Positions 568 through 42,050 of a stretch of 42,050 bases of DNA are shown here, in pieces. A program made the translations under genes and the position numbers. The notes under the pieces are model-generated. The model saw nothing but the letters and a program-made list of their open reading frames with translations. It was not told the origin of the DNA and did no database searches. How positions within the stretch are numbered: position 1 is the first letter of the stretch; the number at the start of each line of letters is the position of its first letter. This DNA is from a virus. Lineage: Duplodnaviria; Heunggongvirae; Uroviricota; Caudoviricetes. The stretch lies in the IMG/VR virus record IMGVR_UViG_2609459854_000002. The stretch is one strand, 5' to 3'.

Positions 568-582
568 TTAGTATAAAAAAGC
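568..582. repeat. attR core (P-O-B' junction); 15-bp lambda-type core
   Basis: Sequence TTAGTATAAAAAAGC on + strand (reverse complement GCTTTTTTATACTAA); flanked on host side by CTTGAGCG (lambda B' arm-like) and on phage side by sequence resembling the lambda P arm. Confidence 0.85.
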
Positions 583-770: not shown

Positions 771-855
771 TCAACACACTGGGTTAGCTGAATTTACAAC
801 CATGCTCAGTATCTCGATAAGCGCAGAGAAATGATGCAATGGTGGGCGGACTGGC

Positions 856-891
856 TTGATGAAAAGGTGGAGTGATCCACCTTTTCATCAA
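856..891. repeat. Perfect 16-bp inverted repeat with 4-nt loop
   Basis: TTGATGAAAAGGTGGA gtga TCCACCTTTTCATCAA read directly; sits between the tI-like hairpin and the 3' end of the acyltransferase gene; no clean U-run on either strand. Confidence 0.6.
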
Positions 892-938
892 TTAAATATA
901 TTTGCAATAAAATAACCAAGAGGCACTATAAAATAACT

Positions 939-2048
939 CTAACTACACTTCGCAGTTAATTTATCACCTCTAAACTTTCTCCAATAACCTCTTATTATTT
1001 TATTTGAAGGCACTTCTATAACCTTGAATGAGATTATTGATACAATAATAGAAACCAATAAAGAAAATGCTATATACATTAACATCTCACACAAATTATC
1101 AGTGTCAGGGTTTAATATCTTAGTTATTACCTGTATTATCATCCAATGGAAAATGTAAAATGAGAAAGAGGCTTCACCAAGCAAAACCATAAATCTATTT
1201 TTAAGTATCTTAGATAAGACGCCACCATTAAAAGCAAATGCAATAACTATAAACGCCATGCAAGGGATATATAGAACATCATATTTTATGTTCATATATG
1301 TGATATAGTTTGTTGCTACATATATTGTCAAAAACAATGACAACACCGATGCGATCTCAAGTATACTGCAAACAGTATAGTTGATTTTTACATCACTATT
1401 AATAAACACCCTACAGATCAGCATTCCTATAATGAAATCGCCAATTCTAAATGATGGATTTATATAAAACAACCAATGCTGTGATATAGCTGATGGTGGA
1501 TTAATTAAATAATAAAAATTAATCGCAAGCACAAATAATAGCACACAAGTTAAATGCTTTGTCTTTAGCCTTGTTAATAAGCAAAATGCAACGTAGAAAA
1601 ACATCTCACATGAGATGCTCCATGAAACGGAATTAAAGGAAAAGTAATAATCCTGTAATGGAATAAATGATTGTAGTAATAATATATTTGAAATAAGCAT
1701 TCCATTATTAATACCATCAATACCCTTACCATGCATAAATATTAAAATAAAACAAATAAGCGCCACTATATGCACAGGGAATATTCTTGCAATCCTGTAT
1801 ACAATAAAATCTTTATTGCTAAATCTCTCTTTTTTTATATGATTTGTGAAGCTATAGTTTATAATGAAACCTGAAAGAATGTAGAAAAACGTTACACCTA
1901 TGTAACCGTTAAAAAAATACTTTGCCGCAGTATTAAACATACCAATAGATGATTGAGATAATAACCCAAGGTGACTAACGAAAACACCAAGGGCTGCAAA
2001 CATTCTCAACGATGTAAGACTTTGAATTATATTGCCTTTATTATTCAT
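939..2048 (-). CDS. Acyltransferase family 3 integral membrane protein (O-antigen acetylase-like lysogenic conversion candidate)
   Basis: 369-aa ORF, visibly AT-rich relative to neighbours; many hydrophobic segments; N-terminal region LTSLRMFAALGVFVSHL resembles the conserved start of acyltransferase-3 (Oac-like) proteins. Family call from memory. Confidence 0.7.
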   Translation of the reverse strand: MNNKGNIIQSLTSLRMFAALGVFVSHLGLLSQSSIGMFNTAAKYFFNGYIGVTFFYILSGFIINYSFTNHIKKERFSNKDFIVYRIARIFPVHIVALICFILIFMHGKGIDGINNGMLISNILLLQSFIPLQDYYFSFNSVSWSISCEMFFYVAFCLLTRLKTKHLTCVLLFVLAINFYYLINPPSAISQHWLFYINPSFRIGDFIIGMLICRVFINSDVKINYTVCSILEIASVLSLFLTIYVATNYITYMNIKYDVLYIPCMAFIVIAFAFNGGVLSKILKNRFMVLLGEASFSFYIFHWMIIQVITKILNPDTDNLCEMLMYIAFSLLVSIIVSIISFKVIEVPSNKIIRGYWRKFRGDKLTAKCS

Positions 2049-2118
2049 AACTCTGCCGGAATGGTTGAATTTCCCGGCAGGTTAGATTAACACATTAGCT
2101 ATGTCAATGTTTCTATTG

Positions 2119-3915
2119 TTAGAACTCCTTCACATCTGCGCCAGAAGACACGCTCCAGATCGAAACAGGCGACCCGTTTACACCTATTAACCTTGCTTTC
2201 AACCCATTTCCGCTTGCTCTTGGTACGGTTAAATTTGCAACAGATGGATTTATAGCCCAATCTCCACCATTTAATATGACACTCATTTCAACTACGCCAC
2301 CATTATCAATATCTATTATAGGTGTTTGCACTACCGGGCTTTGTTGATCAATTGGCAGAAAGCCATTGACAATAATAGATGGTCTGAATGATGGGTTTCC
2401 CTGAACGCTAACACGAAGTTGCCCACCCTTAACAAATTCTGTTGCACAAGTATTCATGACAATGCAATACGGATTTACAAAATCAAATGCATAGCAAATT
2501 GACTCCCCATCCATTGGCGTGCAGTTTTCAGCAGTACAATTGGTCATGGTAGTATATTGCATTCCTGACATTCTAAATGACAACTGGTAACCGTTAACCT
2601 GAACAAGGCGCATATCCATAGAAGTGCCTATTACTTTTATTTGACCATCCCTAAAATCTTCAAATAAAACTCCAGCATATCCTTTCCCTGGATATTGTGG
2701 GAAACCGACCATTTCCATTACGCCAGAGAACGGCACATAAGAGAAGCATCCGATATAAGCACATTCAAAAATTGACTGTCTGATAACTGGTGCTGCTGAT
2801 TTTCCTAAAAACAGTCCGTAATAATTTCTATAAGAATCTACGTTTTCTTGTGTTAAGCCAAGCCTTCTAAACATGCAGTTTTCAACTCTACCGTTAACAC
2901 AAAATGAACTCATTGAGTTATCTGTTAGATCCCATTGCTTTGGTATAAAAGCACATAATGCATCCACCTGAAGAATTACTTCTCCATTTTTTGTGAGATC
3001 TATTTTGTCATTTGTTGTTTTATAAAAAACTGTCGCTTCAGCCTTTCCCTGTCCTCTAATTCCCATATTGTCATAAATTGGGATTGTTTTTGATGTATTT
3101 ATGTTTCCAGCAGGAGCCTCTAGAATGCATTTGTTTGAGCGGGCAAAGTTAGTTGCAAGAGTTATAGCTGTTGCGTTATCTGTGACTCCGTCAGGTTTCA
3201 CCCCCCAAAATTGCATGTCGTAAGTGGTAAAATTAATTCGTCTCCATACCATCGTTCCAGTTTCTGGCTTGATTACAATTCCACCATCATCAGCCCACGC
3301 CTGAATGTTATCAACAGACTCGAAAAAGCCGCCACCAAGGTGGTTTTCAGCATGTGTAGTGCTAGCTGCTGATGCTACGTATACAATCTGCCCCGCCTCC
3401 TCTGGAACACAGGAGCGAAGCTCTGAAAGATTGAGAAAGCGGCCAATAGCGTTAAATCCTGTTTTATCAATTAATGAATCATGTGTAGCTTTCAAGATCT
3501 CCAGCTCAATCTTTACGGTTGTGCCTCCATAACCAACCAGAGATGCGCCATCAGGGCCAGAAAGCTCAGCCCTTAACTGGTCTGGAGAATATTTCAGTAG
3601 ATCAGGATAATAGAATTGTTGTGCGCCATACGCATCATATACAGCCATGGAGTGATTCTGTACAGTTACGAACTTGGCAATCTGTCCGTTATATACCGGA
3701 TATCCAGCAGCGTTAATGATGATTGGTTGAGAAACAGGAACGTGCGAGCCGTCTTCGTTCTCTACATAAACCTGAATCTGGTTTTCTGGATTTACCGGGT
3801 CAGTGTCAACCTGACCGATATAAATTTTGCCATTGGCTACGGCTTTAAAAGAACGCGCCATAGTGAAGAGTTGCGAAGGCATCGATACGATCACATTGGC
3901 TGTAATGTCTGTCAT
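2119..3915 (-). CDS. Tailspike protein (P22 gp9-like head-binding domain, distinct receptor-binding body)
   Basis: 598-aa ORF; first ~110 residues ([59 protein letters not shown]...) closely match the P22 tailspike N-terminus as I recall it; the remainder does not match the P22 endorhamnosidase domain. Confidence 0.85.
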
Positions 3916-4015: not shown

Positions 4016-4507
4016 TCAGTAGTTATGTACTGAAGGAGGTAATTCTTTATTCTTAAGTCTCATCCATGCGGAAAGATTCGTTGGTCCGTCTGGCTCATTA
4101 ATATCAACATCTCGTGTGTGGTTTATTAAAACGTCTCTCGCCATTCCGATAACATACGAGAATTCATGACCGTAGTCGTAGCATCTGCCGGAATAGTTCG
4201 ATTGAATTTGTTTTAATGCCGGATACAGTTCGCGGAATAATGCCTGTGAACGGTTAGCATAATCCCATAGCCATACAAGGCTGTTTGCTTCTTTTGCAGA
4301 AAGCTCGTTGGTTTTCTTCTCTTGTTTGCCGATGAACTCACCTTCAAGCACTACCCTGTGGATGTACTCTACGGCCAGCGGGATTTGTTCAATTGAAAGT
4401 TCATCAATGCTGTCAATACCAAAACGCTGATGAACCATATTGTATGCATCGTCATAGCGAAGTCCTTTCTTTCCTAAACAAAAAACCCACCTGACGGTGG
4501 GTTTCAT
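4016..4507 (-). CDS. Hypothetical protein (start uncertain; possible internal start near 4438)
   Basis: 163-codon ORF; its first ~10 codons are the terminator hairpin at 4475..4504, so the true start may be the in-frame ATG at 4438, which lacks a clear SD. No family recognised. Confidence 0.45.
4475..4504 (-). terminator. Rho-independent terminator-like hairpin after the 322-aa gene
   Basis: On the minus strand AACCCACC gtca GGTGGGTT followed by TTTTTTGTTT, immediately downstream of the stop codon at 4510..4512. Confidence 0.55.
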
Positions 4508-4509
4508 AA

Positions 4510-5478
4510 TTAGATTTCTGGTTTCATTCTTCCGAAAACCTTTTCTATTCCTTTTTCGTATTCTTCTCTTGTCTCACTCATCGCTGCGACACCAAGAAGC
4601 TTACCGATATGCTGACGCAAAGCCTTGACACCAATTTCAGAAAGGAACAGATGCAACTTATCAGATTGTTTTCCGTTCTCGTCTCGGCTGGCTCGAATCT
4701 GTTCAAGGATTTTACCTTTACTCTTTGCTAGCGGGGTGTATATCTGCATGTTGGTTAGCTGCCCAAAACGAATAGGCCGTCCTTTCTCTGGCCTATTCAG
4801 GCCGTACAGTCGATACCACTCCTCGTATAGCTCATCTGGAAATTCCTTTTCATATTGACGAGCCTCTTCACGAACAAACGCTTTGAACTCGTCAATGACA
4901 GCCTGAACTTCTGGACGATAACCAGCAAGCGCATACGCAACCCCCTTAATTCCCGCCTTAGCGGAGGCATTAATAAGTCTCTGTGCTGCGGCGGCTGCCT
5001 TTAACCGTGATTGTGGTAGATCGTCATTATCTTTGGCTTCTATTAGTGCCCTACCAATATCAACAATTGCTGTAATGTCATAACCTAACGCTTGATGAAC
5101 GGTTTTAGACTTCGAAGTAAGTTGAAATTTATAGGGATTTTCCATTTTTCGCTGCAATTCTAGATCTCGGTATTTGCTCATATACTGAGCGCCAAGCAGT
5201 TGATCTAAATCCCTGGCATGTTCACCAATCCCTAGCAACTGAGATAATCCAGTTTTCGTAACAACGACAGTTTTCGACTCGTCATCCAGTACATAACATT
5301 CAGCATCAATGCCAAAATCATCTAAAAAGTTACCACGATGAGTTGCCCTGAGAATCTTACTTTTCCATCTTGCAGCAGCTGCTTTCTTTGCTATTTCAGA
5401 ACGCTGCTCTTTAGTCAGCGACTTTGCGCGAGCGATCCCGCCCTTAGCTTTCCCTTCGCCACTTTTCTTTTCAGTCAT
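4510..5478 (-). CDS. Hypothetical protein with lysine/alanine-rich N-terminal region (possibly P63C-domain-like; unverified)
   Basis: ORF in track 4510..5541; first ATG in frame at 5478 ([38 protein letters not shown]...). Occupies the position of the arc-ant genes of P22 immI between gene 16 and tailspike. Confidence 0.5.
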
Positions 5479-5634
5479 AATGCAAGCACCTTTGTTGTGA
5501 TGTATGCTTGCATTATATACACTGTACACACATACAAGCAAGCATAAAACTAAAACAAAATGCTTGCATTACAACCGCGCTACTCCAACTACACATTATC
5601 ATCTGGTATCCTGCTCAAAACTAAGGAGGTTGGT
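5479..5634. promoter_or_regulatory. Divergent control region with repeated palindromic operator-like motifs
   Basis: GCTTGCATTA-type motif read three times (5481..5490 minus-strand sense, 5505..5515, 5561..5570) plus a related CAAGCAAGCAT at 5535..5545; lies between the divergently oriented genes 4510..5478 and 5635..5964. Confidence 0.5.
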
Positions 5635-5964
5635 GTGCTTGAATGGTTTCTGTTGGCTGCATTAGTCGTTTCTGGTTTGGTGTATGAGTATCGAATGCAC
5701 TCTCTAACAAAAAAAATAGGAATTCTAGAAAACGAATATTGTGCTCTCAAATCCTCACTGGAACGTGAGCAAGGGGACTTAAAAATCTCTCTGTCTAGCA
5801 TTGAGCGTTCTATAGAGAGCTTAGAGGATAAGGTTGATCGTATAAAGAATGAGGATATTCATGATATTAAGGACGACATATCCTTCTTAAAATCTTGGTT
5901 GAAAAATGTTGGGAAAATTGCCACATCAACACGAGATAAGCTCAATCCATCCATGGATGACTAA
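5635..5964 (+). CDS. Hypothetical small membrane-anchored coiled-coil protein
   Basis: GTG at 5635 preceded by AAGGAGG (SD); an alternative ATG at 5560 lacks an SD. Predicted N-terminal hydrophobic helix (LEWFLLAALVVSGLVY) followed by charged heptad-like sequence; AT-rich; converges tail-to-tail on the gp16-like gene. Confidence 0.4.
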   Translation: MLEWFLLAALVVSGLVYEYRMHSLTKKIGILENEYCALKSSLEREQGDLKISLSSIERSIESLEDKVDRIKNEDIHDIKDDISFLKSWLKNVGKIATSTRDKLNPSMDD

Positions 5965-39365: not shown

Positions 39366-39584
39366 ATGTACTTGACACTTCAGGAGTGGAACGCACGCCA
39401 GCGACGTCCAAGAAGCCTTGAAACAGTTCGTCGATGGGTACGCGAGTGCAAGATATTCCCTCCTCCGGTTAAGGATGGAAGAGAGTATCTGTTCCACGAA
39501 TCAGCGGTAAAGGTTGACTTAAATCGACCAGTAACAGGTAGCCTTTTGAAGAGGATCAGAAATGGGAAGAAGGCGAAGTCATGA
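39366..39584 (+). CDS. xis: Excisionase
   Basis: MYLTLQEWNARQRRPRSLETVRRWVRECKIFPPPVKDGREYLFHESAVKVDLNRPVTGSLLKRIRNGKKAKS, essentially lambda Xis as recalled. Confidence 0.9.
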   Translation: MYLTLQEWNARQRRPRSLETVRRWVRECKIFPPPVKDGREYLFHESAVKVDLNRPVTGSLLKRIRNGKKAKS

Positions 39585-40632
39585 GCGCCGGGATTTACCC
39601 CCTAACCTTTATATAAGAAACAATGGATATTACTGCTACAGGGACCCAAGGACGGGTAAAGAGTTCGGATTAGGCAGAGACAGGAGGATAGCAATTACTG
39701 AAGCAATACAGGCAAACATTGAGTTATTTTCAGGACACAAACACAAGCCTCTGACAGCAAGAATCAACAGTGATAATTCTGTTACGCTACATTCATGGCT
39801 TGATCGCTACGAAAAAATACTCGCCAGCAGAGGAATCAAGCAGAAGACACTCATAAATTACATGAGCAAAATTAAAGCAATAAGGAGGGGTCTGCCTGAT
39901 GCTCCACTTGAAGACATCACCACAAAAGAAATTGCGGCAATGCTTAATGGATACATAGACGAGGGCAAGGCGGCATCAGCCAAGTTAATCAGATCAACAC
40001 TGAGCGATGCATTCCGAGAGGCAATAGCTGAAGGCCATATAACAACAAACCCGGTCGCTGCCACTCGCGCAGCAAAATCAGAGGTAAGGAGATCAAGGCT
40101 TACGGCTGACGAATACCTGAAAATTTATCAAGCAGCAGAATCATCACCATGTTGGCTAAGACTTGCAATGGAACTGGCTGTTGTTACCGGGCAGAGAGTT
40201 GGTGATTTATGCGAAATGAAGTGGTCTGATATCGTAGATGGATATCTTTATGTCGAGCAAAGCAAAACAGGCGTAAAAATTGCCATCCCAACAGCATTGC
40301 ATGTTGATGCTCTCGGAATATCAATGAAGGAAACACTTGATAAATGCAAAGAGATTCTTGGCGGAGAAACCATAATTGCATCTACTCGTCGCGAACCGCT
40401 TTCATCCGGCACAGTATCAAGGTATTTTATGCGCGCACGAAAAGCATCAGGTCTTTCCTTCGAAGGGGATCCGCCTACCTTTCACGAGTTGCGCAGTTTG
40501 TCTGCAAGACTCTATGAGAAGCAGATAAGCGATAAGTTTGCTCAACATCTTCTCGGGCATAAGTCGGACACCATGGCATCACAGTATCGTGATGACAGAG
40601 GCAGGGAGTGGGACAAAATTGAAATCAAATAA
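39562..40632 (+). CDS. int: Tyrosine integrase (lambda Int-like)
   Basis: 356 aa, same length as lambda Int; N-terminus MGRRRSHERRDLPPNLYIRNNGYYCYRDPRTGKEFGLGRDRRIAITEAIQAN matches as recalled; overlaps xis as in lambda. Confidence 0.95.
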   Translation: MGRRRSHERRDLPPNLYIRNNGYYCYRDPRTGKEFGLGRDRRIAITEAIQANIELFSGHKHKPLTARINSDNSVTLHSWLDRYEKILASRGIKQKTLINYMSKIKAIRRGLPDAPLEDITTKEIAAMLNGYIDEGKAASAKLIRSTLSDAFREAIAEGHITTNPVAATRAAKSEVRRSRLTADEYLKIYQAAESSPCWLRLAMELAVVTGQRVGDLCEMKWSDIVDGYLYVEQSKTGVKIAIPTALHVDALGISMKETLDKCKEILGGETIIASTRREPLSSGTVSRYFMRARKASGLSFEGDPPTFHELRSLSARLYEKQISDKFAQHLLGHKSDTMASQYRDDRGREWDKIEIK

Positions 40633-40705: not shown

Positions 40706-40720
40706 TTAGTATAAAAAAGC
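40706..40720. repeat. attL core (B-O-P' junction); 15-bp lambda-type core
   Basis: TTAGTATAAAAAAGC on + strand, identical to the copy at 568..582; phage side (40633..40705) resembles the lambda P' arm, host side continues AGGCTTCA (lambda B arm-like). Confidence 0.85.
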
Positions 40721-40766: not shown

Positions 40767-42050
40767 GTGAACACATTTTCAGTTTCCCGTCTGGCGCTGG
40801 CATTGGCTTTTGGCGTGACGCTGACCGCCTGTAGCTCAACCCCGCCCGATCAACGTCCTTCTGATCAAACCGCGCCTGGTACCTCTTCTCGCCCGATTCT
40901 GTCGGCAAAAGAAGCGCAGAATTTCGATGCTCAACACTATTTTGCATCCCTGACACCAGGTGCTGCAGCGTGGAATCCTTCCCCGATTACCCTGCCTGCG
41001 CAACCTGACTTTGTTGTCGGCCCGGCGGGCACTCAAGGTGTAACGCATACCACGATTCAGGCGGCGGTAGATGCGGCAATTATCAAGCGTACCAACAAGC
41101 GCCAGTATATTGCCGTGATGCCTGGTGAGTATCAGGGAACGGTATATGTCCCTGCCGCTCCGGGTGGAATTACTCTGTACGGTACAGGTGAAAAACCGAT
41201 TGATGTGAAGATTGGGCTTTCCCTTGATGGTGGCATGAGCCCTGCCGACTGGCGTCACGACGTCAACCCGCGCGGCAAATATATGCCAGGTAAACCAGCG
41301 TGGTATATGTACGATAGCTGCCAGAGCAAACGCAGCGACAGTATCGGTGTTCTCTGCTCTGCGGTCTTCTGGTCACAAAACAATGGCCTGCAACTGCAAA
41401 ATCTGACCATCGAAAACACGCTGGGCGATAGCGTAGATGCAGGTAACCATCCGGCGGTGGCACTGCGTACTGATGGTGACCAGGTACAGATTAACAACGT
41501 TAACATTCTCGGTCGTCAGAACACCTTCTTTGTCACCAACAGCGGTGTGCAGAACCGTCTGGAAACCAACCGTCAGCCGCGTACGCTGGTGACCAACAGC
41601 TACATTGAAGGGGATGTGGATATCGTTTCTGGTCGCGGCGCAGTGGTGTTCGATAACACCGAATTCCGCGTGGTGAACTCACGTACTCAGCAAGAAGCGT
41701 ATGTGTTTGCACCGGCTACGCTGTCCAACATTTACTACGGTTTCCTCGCCGTAAACAGCCGTTTCAATGCTTTCGGTGATGGTGTGGCGCAACTGGGCCG
41801 CTCGCTGGATGTTGATGCCAATACCAACGGTCAGGTGGTGATCCGTGATAGCGCCATCAACGAAGGTTTTAACACGGCTAAACCGTGGGCCGATGCGGTG
41901 ATCTCTAATCGTCCGTTTGCGGGTAATACCGGCAGCGTAGATGATAACGACGAAATACAGCGCAATCTGAATGACACTAACTACAACCGCATGTGGGAAT
42001 ACAATAACCGCGGCGTGGGTAGTAAAGTGGTTGCAGAGGCGAAGAAGTAA
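40767..42050 (+). CDS. ybhC: YbhC-like pectinesterase-family lipoprotein (host gene flanking the prophage)
   Basis: 427-codon ORF beginning at GTG with lipoprotein signal (…LALAFGVTLTACSS…); recognised from memory as E. coli YbhC; complete, ends at window end. Confidence 0.85.
   Translation: MNTFSVSRLALALAFGVTLTACSSTPPDQRPSDQTAPGTSSRPILSAKEAQNFDAQHYFASLTPGAAAWNPSPITLPAQPDFVVGPAGTQGVTHTTIQAAVDAAIIKRTNKRQYIAVMPGEYQGTVYVPAAPGGITLYGTGEKPIDVKIGLSLDGGMSPADWRHDVNPRGKYMPGKPAWYMYDSCQSKRSDSIGVLCSAVFWSQNNGLQLQNLTIENTLGDSVDAGNHPAVALRTDGDQVQINNVNILGRQNTFFVTNSGVQNRLETNRQPRTLVTNSYIEGDVDIVSGRGAVVFDNTEFRVVNSRTQQEAYVFAPATLSNIYYGFLAVNSRFNAFGDGVAQLGRSLDVDANTNGQVVIRDSAINEGFNTAKPWADAVISNRPFAGNTGSVDDNDEIQRNLNDTNYNRMWEYNNRGVGSKVVAEAKK

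Follow-up and report, generated by a model that had tools for sequence, protein, structure and literature searches.

Chimeric P22-like tailspikes, the O103 receptor-binding protein (RBP) subtype, O-antigen-modifying genes located beside tailspike genes, and the annotated gp48-gp49 pair of phage TL-2011b are all established. The Oac (OacA) protein of phage Sf6 acetylates the O-antigen that is cleaved by the phage's own tailspike and confers superinfection immunity (PMC9558356). In PhiV10, a temperate E. coli podovirus, the Oac protein modifies the host O-antigen and blocks PhiV10 infection (PMC11854483; record annotation). Here we describe a tailspike and acyltransferase gene pair encoded in IMG/VR record IMGVR_UViG_2609459854_000002, a 42,050 nucleotide (nt) stretch of DNA (the window) that contains a complete P22-like prophage. 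The tailspike is chimeric, in that its head-binding anchor is of the P22/Sf6 type and its beta-helix body is foreign and of the O103 subtype, and the gene that follows it is predicted to encode an O-antigen O-acetyltransferase of the acyltransferase-3 (AT3) family. We propose that the two proteins act on the same surface polysaccharide. The core idea is textbook phage biology, the TL-2011b pair is annotated, and RefSeq genomes contain copies of the cassette at 98-99.6% identity; thus, the cassette is of an already known kind.

The preliminary description of this DNA placed two open reading frames (ORFs) here, and both were recovered on the minus strand, where they are co-directional and separated by a 70 nt gap. 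The features of the cassette are:

2119-3915, minus strand: tailspike gene, 598 amino acids plus stop (ORF, Pfam and PHROG matches, PDB sequence matches, AlphaFold model and Foldseek)
3577-3915, minus strand: head-binding (virion anchor) domain, tailspike residues 1-113 (PF09008; N-termini of Sf6 gp14 and P22 gp9)
2122-3567, minus strand: receptor-binding body, tailspike residues 117-598, PF27114 "Phage_tail_beta", parallel beta-helix (homology, model and Foldseek)
939-2048, minus strand: AT3-only acyltransferase, 369 amino acids, predicted O-antigen O-acetyltransferase (PF01757, PHROG 3333 and homology to TL-2011b gp49)
792-3470, minus strand: extent of the mobile cassette by DNA similarity (megablast)

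Comparison with described systems

TL-2011b gp48 and gp49 form the same cassette, with the same gene order, strand, promoter-like element and inverted repeat, and a gap of 74 nt. By megablast, the DNA similarity to this phage (a Uetakevirus with a different backbone) spans 963-3470, and so includes the acyltransferase and the tailspike body and excludes the anchor. Instead of the P22 head-binding domain, gp48 has a 215-residue Uetakevirus N-terminus, and the TL-2011b cassette precedes the lysis genes, whereas that of the window is at the prophage end. Other P22-like prophages, at other integration sites, share the cassette DNA from position ~791 (megablast).

Sf6 gp14 and Oac resemble the window pair in that Sf6 is a P22-like phage with an 85% identical head-binding domain and an AT3-only gene after the tailspike, near int/att. 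However, oac is convergent with the Sf6 tailspike gene and has its own annotated promoter and terminator, whereas the window gene is co-directional, and the Sf6 tailspike has another body, the target of which is the S. flexneri Y O-antigen. The analogy with Sf6 drawn in the preliminary description is reasonable for an AT3-only gene beside a head-binding tailspike; it does not extend to gene orientation, or to most of the acyltransferase sequence (see below). PhiV10 also has an O-acetyltransferase gene adjoining the tailspike gene, but the two are convergent and the target is O157. In P22, gene 9 is accompanied by an O-antigen modification cassette, gtrABC, in the same slot (and in BTP1 the cassette is gtrC). 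The P22 system differs in that it involves glucosylation by three genes, in a convergent cassette.

Tailspike architecture

The preliminary description reported that the first ~110 residues of the tailspike match P22 gp9 and that the body does not, and both points hold. PF09008 (Head_binding) aligns to residues 1-113 over positions 1-113 of the 113-position profile (E value 6.2e-65). In searches of PDB sequences the N-terminus matches Sf6 gp14 (E value 1.9e-63; 85% identity in the Foldseek row) and P22 gp9 (E value ~1e-50; ~70% identity by count of the alignment). Past about residue 117, no match to the P22 or Sf6 tailspikes was identified in the PDB sequence search. The tailspike is therefore a chimera. 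The PF27114 body family is found behind three types of N-terminus (PF09008, PF18668 and the Uetakevirus type) and in hosts that include Escherichia, Cronobacter, Cedecea, Yersinia, Proteus and Morganella, among others.

Structure prediction of the body had been suggested as a check, and it yielded both a fold and candidate catalytic residues. The AlphaFold2 model (a monomer, from a 25-sequence alignment) has predicted local distance difference test (pLDDT) values mostly >90 from about residue 240 to 598, and forms a right-handed parallel beta-helix. Foldseek matched the model with probability 1.0 to tailspike depolymerases (24qi, 6eu4, 7vz3 and 5w6p), and the matches include Acinetobacter phage Belisarius gp86 (24qi), AS12 gp42 (6eu4), Klebsiella Depo32 and CBA120 TSP2. 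The acidic residues proposed as the active site of PAS7 map to D282, E293, E384, E463, N464, E493 and D523. Among 25 homologues there is no variation at E463 or E493, and almost none at E293 or E384. This pattern is suggestive of E293, E384, E463 and E493 (plus D282 and D523) as candidate active-site residues. NCBIfam has no model for either the tailspike or the acyltransferase.

E. coli APEC20/16, an O103 strain (locus L006), encodes a 598 amino acid head-binding tailspike that equals that of the window to about residue 245 and is then ~60% identical. This points to recombination at a second site, within the body, and to a different modification cassette in an O103 host.

Predicted O103 specificity of the tailspike body

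The preliminary description considered the specificity of the tailspike not deducible from its sequence. We find that it can be deduced, as O103, by reference to a published RBP subtype. Pas et al. define the "O103 RBP subtype" with PAS7, Ro103C3lw, TL-2011b and one Lederbergvirus prophage RBP (from an O103 strain) as members (PMC10408124, PMC11522302), the criteria (Pas et al. 2023) being at least 30% amino acid identity across the receptor-binding domain (RBD) and a host of serogroup O103. The window body is 94% identical to residues 216-697 of TL-2011b gp48, the N-terminus of which is unrelated, and 51% and 43% identical to PAS7 and Ro103C3lw, respectively, which are its only other E. coli relatives among deposited phages. 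TL-2011b was obtained from an O103:H25 outbreak strain and, in spot assays, infects O103:H25 and none of 38 non-O103 commensals (PMC4315091). Lysis by Ro103C3lw is restricted to O103 strains (PMC8303462), and the PAS7 RBD redirects a tailocin to kill O103 (PMC11762384).

For the host side, we searched 5,426 complete E. coli genomes using the body DNA and the O103 wzy gene of strain 12009 as queries. O103 wzy is present in 32 genomes and the body DNA in 10, in eight of which the body is uninterrupted. All eight of these genomes encode O103 wzy (hypergeometric p = 2.5e-17, or 1.8e-13 after near-identical strain pairs are collapsed); the serotype of the window's own host is not readable from the window. 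Thus, both by RBD identity and by the serogroup of the hosts the tailspike falls within the O103 subtype, and we conclude that the body is very probably O103-specific. The two body carriers that are not O103, WP8-S18-CRE-02 and GSH8M-2, are the same strain (locus L007). Their prophage is a remnant riddled with IS3, ISSen4 and IS1, with a tailspike gene split by IS3.

Acyltransferase

The acyltransferase-3 assignment made in the preliminary description could have failed in a profile search, and it did not. PF01757 (Acyl_transf_3) aligns to residues 9-337 over profile positions 2-325 of 326 (E value 1.5e-26) with 93.6 bits, against a cut-off of 31. The protein also matches PHROG 3333 "O-acetyltransferase" (E value 2e-80) and shares 82% identity with TL-2011b gp49, the annotation of which is "O-acetyltransferase". 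It is a single AT3 domain, with no SGNH or other second domain detected by Pfam, and the PDB contains no sequence relative. A Kyte-Doolittle scan, which is crude, shows six distinct strong hydrophobic segments; about ten transmembrane (TM) segments are expected for the AT3 family.

Mutagenesis of Oac and OafA has shown that R/K-X10-H in TM1 and RxxR in the first cytoplasmic loop are essential (PMC9558356). The window protein has R15-X10-H26, R85-I-A-R88, FFxxLSGF and WSxSxE intact, and none of these motifs varies among 24 homologues, the most distant of which has 34% identity. The gene is AT-rich, as previously noted: its GC content is 29.7%, compared to 41.0% for the tailspike body, 43.7% for the head-binding part and 46.7% for the whole prophage. 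Such a deviant base composition is a criterion for a moron.

The O103 O-antigen gene cluster of strain 12009 contains no AT3 gene. Consequently, any O-acetylation of O103 must originate elsewhere in the genome.

Linkage of the acyltransferase to the tailspike body

We identified 34 loci that encode the body family, 29 of which include enough downstream DNA for the next gene to be judged. The next gene is an AT3 acyltransferase at 17 loci, a convergent gtrABC cassette at 11 and neither at one (where there is a weak partial match). At 15 of the 17 loci the acyltransferase is on the same strand as the body, with a gap of 73-121 nt. Conversely, we examined acyltransferases on viral contigs: of 13 with at least 50% identity to that of the window, 12 are directly after a member of the body family (73-121 nt downstream), compared to none of ~30 at ≤41% identity. 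By these counts, this acyltransferase subfamily is specifically paired with this body family. This two-way linkage across anchors and genera appears not to have been described before. The lytic phages PAS7 and Ro103C3lw are not among the acyltransferase matches listed in the phage-collection search. One protein from a Logan assembly (P0066), with a predicted length of 714 amino acids, has both PF01757 and PF27114 matches; it could result from an error in gene calling or from a tailspike frame fused to an acyltransferase frame.

The gtrABC genes modify the O-antigen and occupy the same slot as the acyltransferase, so the slot appears to be dedicated to O-antigen modification. For example, the O103 strain APEC20/16 encodes a 74%-identical head-binding tailspike that is followed by gtrABC and intS in place of the acyltransferase. 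From the two-way linkage, the interchangeability with gtrABC, purifying selection and retention in decayed prophages (the last two described below), we infer that the acyltransferase is functionally tied to the tailspike receptor.

The acyltransferase could instead act on another glycan (enterobacterial common antigen, capsule, colanic acid or peptidoglycan), or transfer an acyl group other than acetyl. AT3 substrates are diverse (PMC9558356), NCBIfam provides no equivalog-level family match, and similarity to characterised Oac proteins is not close. However, the gene accompanies a tailspike specific for O-antigen, and gtrABC can take its place. Furthermore, PHROG 3333 carries the annotation O-acetyltransferase and PHROG 6705 that of O-antigen acetylase, and the characterised phage-borne AT3-only enzymes cited in PMC9558356 all act on O-antigen. 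We therefore consider a different substrate or acyl group very unlikely, and predict that the O-antigen is probably the acyl acceptor.

Selection, persistence and allele exchange

The acyltransferase is full length (362-370 amino acids) in every copy examined, including those in decayed phages. In 33-6 and 58-3 only a fragment of the tailspike is present, along with gtrABC, and the acyltransferase is intact. The gene is also full length where the tailspike is fragmented (loci L125 and L126) and where it is absent (L127 and L123), and in the IS-riddled remnant L007 it is intact at 99% identity. The last codons of the tailspike remain at L127 and L124. Such persistence in decayed prophages appears not to have been described before. 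The ratio of nonsynonymous to synonymous substitution rates (dN/dS) is 0.17 relative to TL-2011b and 0.21 relative to WP8, and points to purifying selection on the acyltransferase. The strongly deviant GC content might suggest a hitch-hiking or decaying passenger without current function. Given the full-length ORF in every copy, the invariant catalytic motifs and these dN/dS values, that explanation is effectively refuted.

The acyltransferase has diverged far more than the adjacent body. Relative to TL-2011b, the synonymous divergence (dS) is 0.67 for the acyltransferase and 0.25 for the body, and relative to locus L016 synonymous sites of the acyltransferase are saturated, whereas dS for the body is 0.05. 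At L016, L017, L020 and L005 the bodies are 96-98% identical in amino acid sequence to that of the window, and the acyltransferase allele is 65% identical. Thus, alleles have been reshuffled within a conserved arrangement. They were possibly swapped within the cassette by crossover at the conserved intergenic element.

Locus L124, on the chromosome of Cedecea neteri, encodes an acyltransferase (61% identity) that has kept the upstream element, along with a remnant of the final tailspike codons. The gene sits behind Mu/P2-type baseplate, tail fibre and tail-fibre-assembly genes, beside a convergent gtr cassette. We interpret this arrangement as an acyltransferase unit that moved into a myovirus context.

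These observations bear on a second explanation, in which the O-antigen is modified but the benefit is unrelated to the phage's own tailspike. The benefit could be changed antigenicity, resistance to serum or bile, or defence against other O103 phages, and the position of the gene would be the usual "moron slot". Consistent with this, the acyltransferase outlives tailspike loss, its alleles are reshuffled relative to the body, the L124 copy follows a myovirus tail fibre, and gtrABC is found in the same slot of many P22-like phages. However, a generic slot would not yield a near one-to-one, two-way association of acyltransferase and body with three anchors and in several genera, and we judge this explanation unlikely.

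Intergenic region and expression

The features of the noncoding DNA around the acyltransferase gene are:

2049-2118, minus strand: intergenic region, 70 nt, with promoter-like element and inverted repeat (read from the sequence, 11 versions aligned)
862-885, minus strand: tentative terminator-like hairpin, AAAAGGTGGA-TCAC-TCCACCTTTT, 10 base pairs (identified by eye; not flagged by the scan)

The promoter-like element comprises a perfect -35 sequence, TTGACA (2102-2107), a 17 nt spacer and a -10 sequence, TAACCT (2079-2084). The 11 distinct versions that we aligned come from several genera. All of them share TTGAC and, in the -10 sequence, the T, the A and the final T; their spacers differ in sequence and are always 17 nt long. 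The element is also kept where the tailspike has been deleted. It was detected solely by comparing loci. The scan for consensus promoters and terminators returned fewer sites overall than were found in shuffled sequence.

An inverted repeat, CTGCCGG-N14-CCGGCAG, has arms at 2074-2080 and 2053-2059; it overlaps the -10 sequence and stops 4 nt before the ATG. The arms pair in register in 84% of cells, compared to 21-55% when one is slid relative to the other. The covariation test for an RNA hairpin found two-sided changes in three cells only, not above shuffles. As compensatory changes are too few, we claim only a conserved inverted repeat, which is compatible with both an RNA hairpin and a DNA site. 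In a modelled read-through transcript the start codon is inside an extended stem (-30.4 kcal/mol, z = -4.0). Between 450 and 4100, Rfam yielded only one microRNA match, at chance level (E value 0.86).

The consensus scan identified no terminator-like signal between the tailspike and acyltransferase genes; the terminator-like hairpin is ~55 nt past the acyltransferase stop codon. The acyltransferase unit looks like a moron that could be read both from its own putative promoter and by late read-through. The co-directional layout with a conserved promoter-like element and inverted repeat appears not to have been described before.

This layout raises a third possibility, that the acyltransferase acts mainly in the lytic phase. 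Expressed by late read-through, it would mask the O-antigen on the dying cell and its debris and so spare released virions, and protection of the lysogen would be secondary. Receptor masking by T5 Llp is a role of this type. The gene begins only 70 nt past the tailspike gene on the same strand, the earliest terminator-like hairpin lies beyond it, and the orientation, opposite to that of oac in Sf6 and PhiV10, is kept at 15 loci. On the other hand, a conserved promoter-like element is directly upstream of the acyltransferase, and the gene is intact in remnants that are unable to make virions, which argues for a benefit to the host in lysogeny. The lytic-phase and lysogenic roles are compatible with each other, and it is improbable that the former is the main one.

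Proposed mechanism

The mechanism that we propose builds on the observed domain architecture, fold, family membership, O103 association, linkage and sequence constraint. Recombination near residues 117-148 would have given a P22/Sf6-anchored tailspike an O103-subtype beta-helix body. The body would bind and cleave the E. coli O103 O-antigen, presumably as a glycosidase, via the conserved acidic residues E293, E384, E463 and E493. In the lysogen, the low-GC AT3 enzyme of the inner membrane would be expressed and O-acetylate the O103 O-antigen at some position, a form of lysogenic conversion. Acetylation would in turn lower the adsorption of phages with the same or similar tailspikes. By analogy with the described systems, exclusion of like phages by the acyltransferase is an evenly balanced prospect. 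The full chain, from an O103-cleaving tailspike to an O-antigen-acetylating and excluding acyltransferase, is in our view a moderately probable account of the cassette.

Several observations count against this account. Similarity to Sf6 Oac is limited to 82 N-terminal residues (34% identity, E value 2e-5), and that to PhiV10 Oac is not significant (E value 0.28), so that the acyltransferase appears to be related to these enzymes at the level of the AT3 superfamily only. The consensus promoter scan has no match in the gap; the -10 sequence fits three of six consensus positions, which is why the scan missed the promoter-like element. The non-O103 lineage of WP8-S18-CRE-02 and GSH8M-2 retains an intact acyltransferase. 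The acyltransferase subfamily and body family also occur in Cronobacter, Cedecea, Morganella and Aeromonas, and thus the pair extends beyond O103. The literature searched contained no report that O103 is O-acetylated. Finally, the tailocin with the PAS7 RBD kills NVH-848, an O103:H25 strain of the outbreak clone that may carry TL-2011b (PMC11762384, PMC3293862). If NVH-848 does carry TL-2011b, acetylation does not block every O103 tailspike.

We also considered the TL-2011b acetyltransferase as the cause of the failure of PAS7 to plaque on NVH-848. This explanation is unsupported, given that the PAS7-RBD tailocin kills the strain (PMC11762384). Carriage of TL-2011b by NVH-848 is not stated (PMC3293862), and we retain the idea as a caveat only.

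A broader and more tentative scenario, which we think doubtful as a whole, joins these elements. A co-selected "recognise-and-mask" cassette would move as a unit between P22-type, Uetakevirus-type and PF18668-type backbones and between enterobacterial genera. The inverted repeat at the -10 sequence and start codon would distinguish promoter-initiated lysogenic transcripts from late read-through transcripts, and so tune translation of the acyltransferase. Diverged acyltransferase alleles beside near-identical bodies would produce different acetylation patterns, the outcome of an arms race among O103 phages. If this were true, about a fifth of O103 strains could represent unrecognised O-acetylated O103 subtypes.

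Implications for O103 strains

O103 is one of the "big six" non-O157 serogroups of Shiga-toxin-producing E. coli, and is targeted by phage biocontrol, engineered tailocins and O-antigen-based serodiagnostics. About a fifth (6 of 32) of the complete O103 genomes encode the acyltransferase or a variant of it, and may therefore carry acetylated O-antigen, an implication that appears not to have been described before. Variation in susceptibility to O103-specific phages and tailocins is unexplained (PMC11522302, PMC11762384). If the acyltransferase modifies O103, it could explain such strain differences and could alter recognition by antibodies. The words "acetyl" and "acetyltransferase" have zero occurrences each in two papers on O103 RBPs (PMC10408124, PMC11522302). 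The tight linkage means that a receptor-binding module and a presumed receptor-masking enzyme can be exchanged together. Such joint exchange provides a rule that should help to predict both host range and lysogenic conversion from sequence data.

Prophage setting

The window contains a complete Lederbergvirus-type prophage of ~40 kilobases from E. coli, inserted between ybhB (1-477) and ybhC (40767-42050). The ybhB/ybhC interval is the classical lambda attachment locus, and both ends of the prophage carry a lambda attachment (att) core:

568-582, minus strand: lambda att core GCTTTTTTATACTAA (exact match), at the prophage end beside the acyltransferase, on the ybhB side
40706-40720, minus strand: second lambda att core GCTTTTTTATACTAA, at the other prophage end, beside the integrase gene (39562-40632) and ybhC

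These are the two exact copies of GCTTTTTTATACTAA in the window, where 0.01 would be expected by chance. The prophage interior encodes an integrase, CI-like repressor, Erf, replication O-like and DnaB-like proteins, terminase, portal, coat and head-closure proteins, and P22-type ejection ("DNA transfer") proteins. The tailspike and acyltransferase genes, both on the minus strand, are the last two genes ahead of the att site.

Between the att core and the cassette (583-850) we identified a lambda-type attP arm with the arm-type Int site sequence "ctgttacaggtcactaata...", and at ~735-765 a hairpin (AGCGCAAG...CTTGCGCT) similar to the lambda sib/tI region. The prophage thus combines an int/att module of the lambda type with a P22-like virion module.

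The antirepressor region (4016-5541, minus strand) is unusual. A 343 amino acid ORF with a P63C domain (4510-5541, TTG start) is followed after 2 nt, in another frame, by a 163 amino acid ORF that has only the C-terminal P22AR domain of Ant. One explanation is an ant gene that has been split or replaced; the other is a pair of coupled genes. Among the ORFs examined, none was recognised as a homologue of arc or mnt. On the opposite strand (5560-5964, plus strand), between an ejection-protein gene and the P63C ORF, is a 134 amino acid ORF that matches PHROG 5962 (E value 3e-61), at the position where P22 carries its immI genes.

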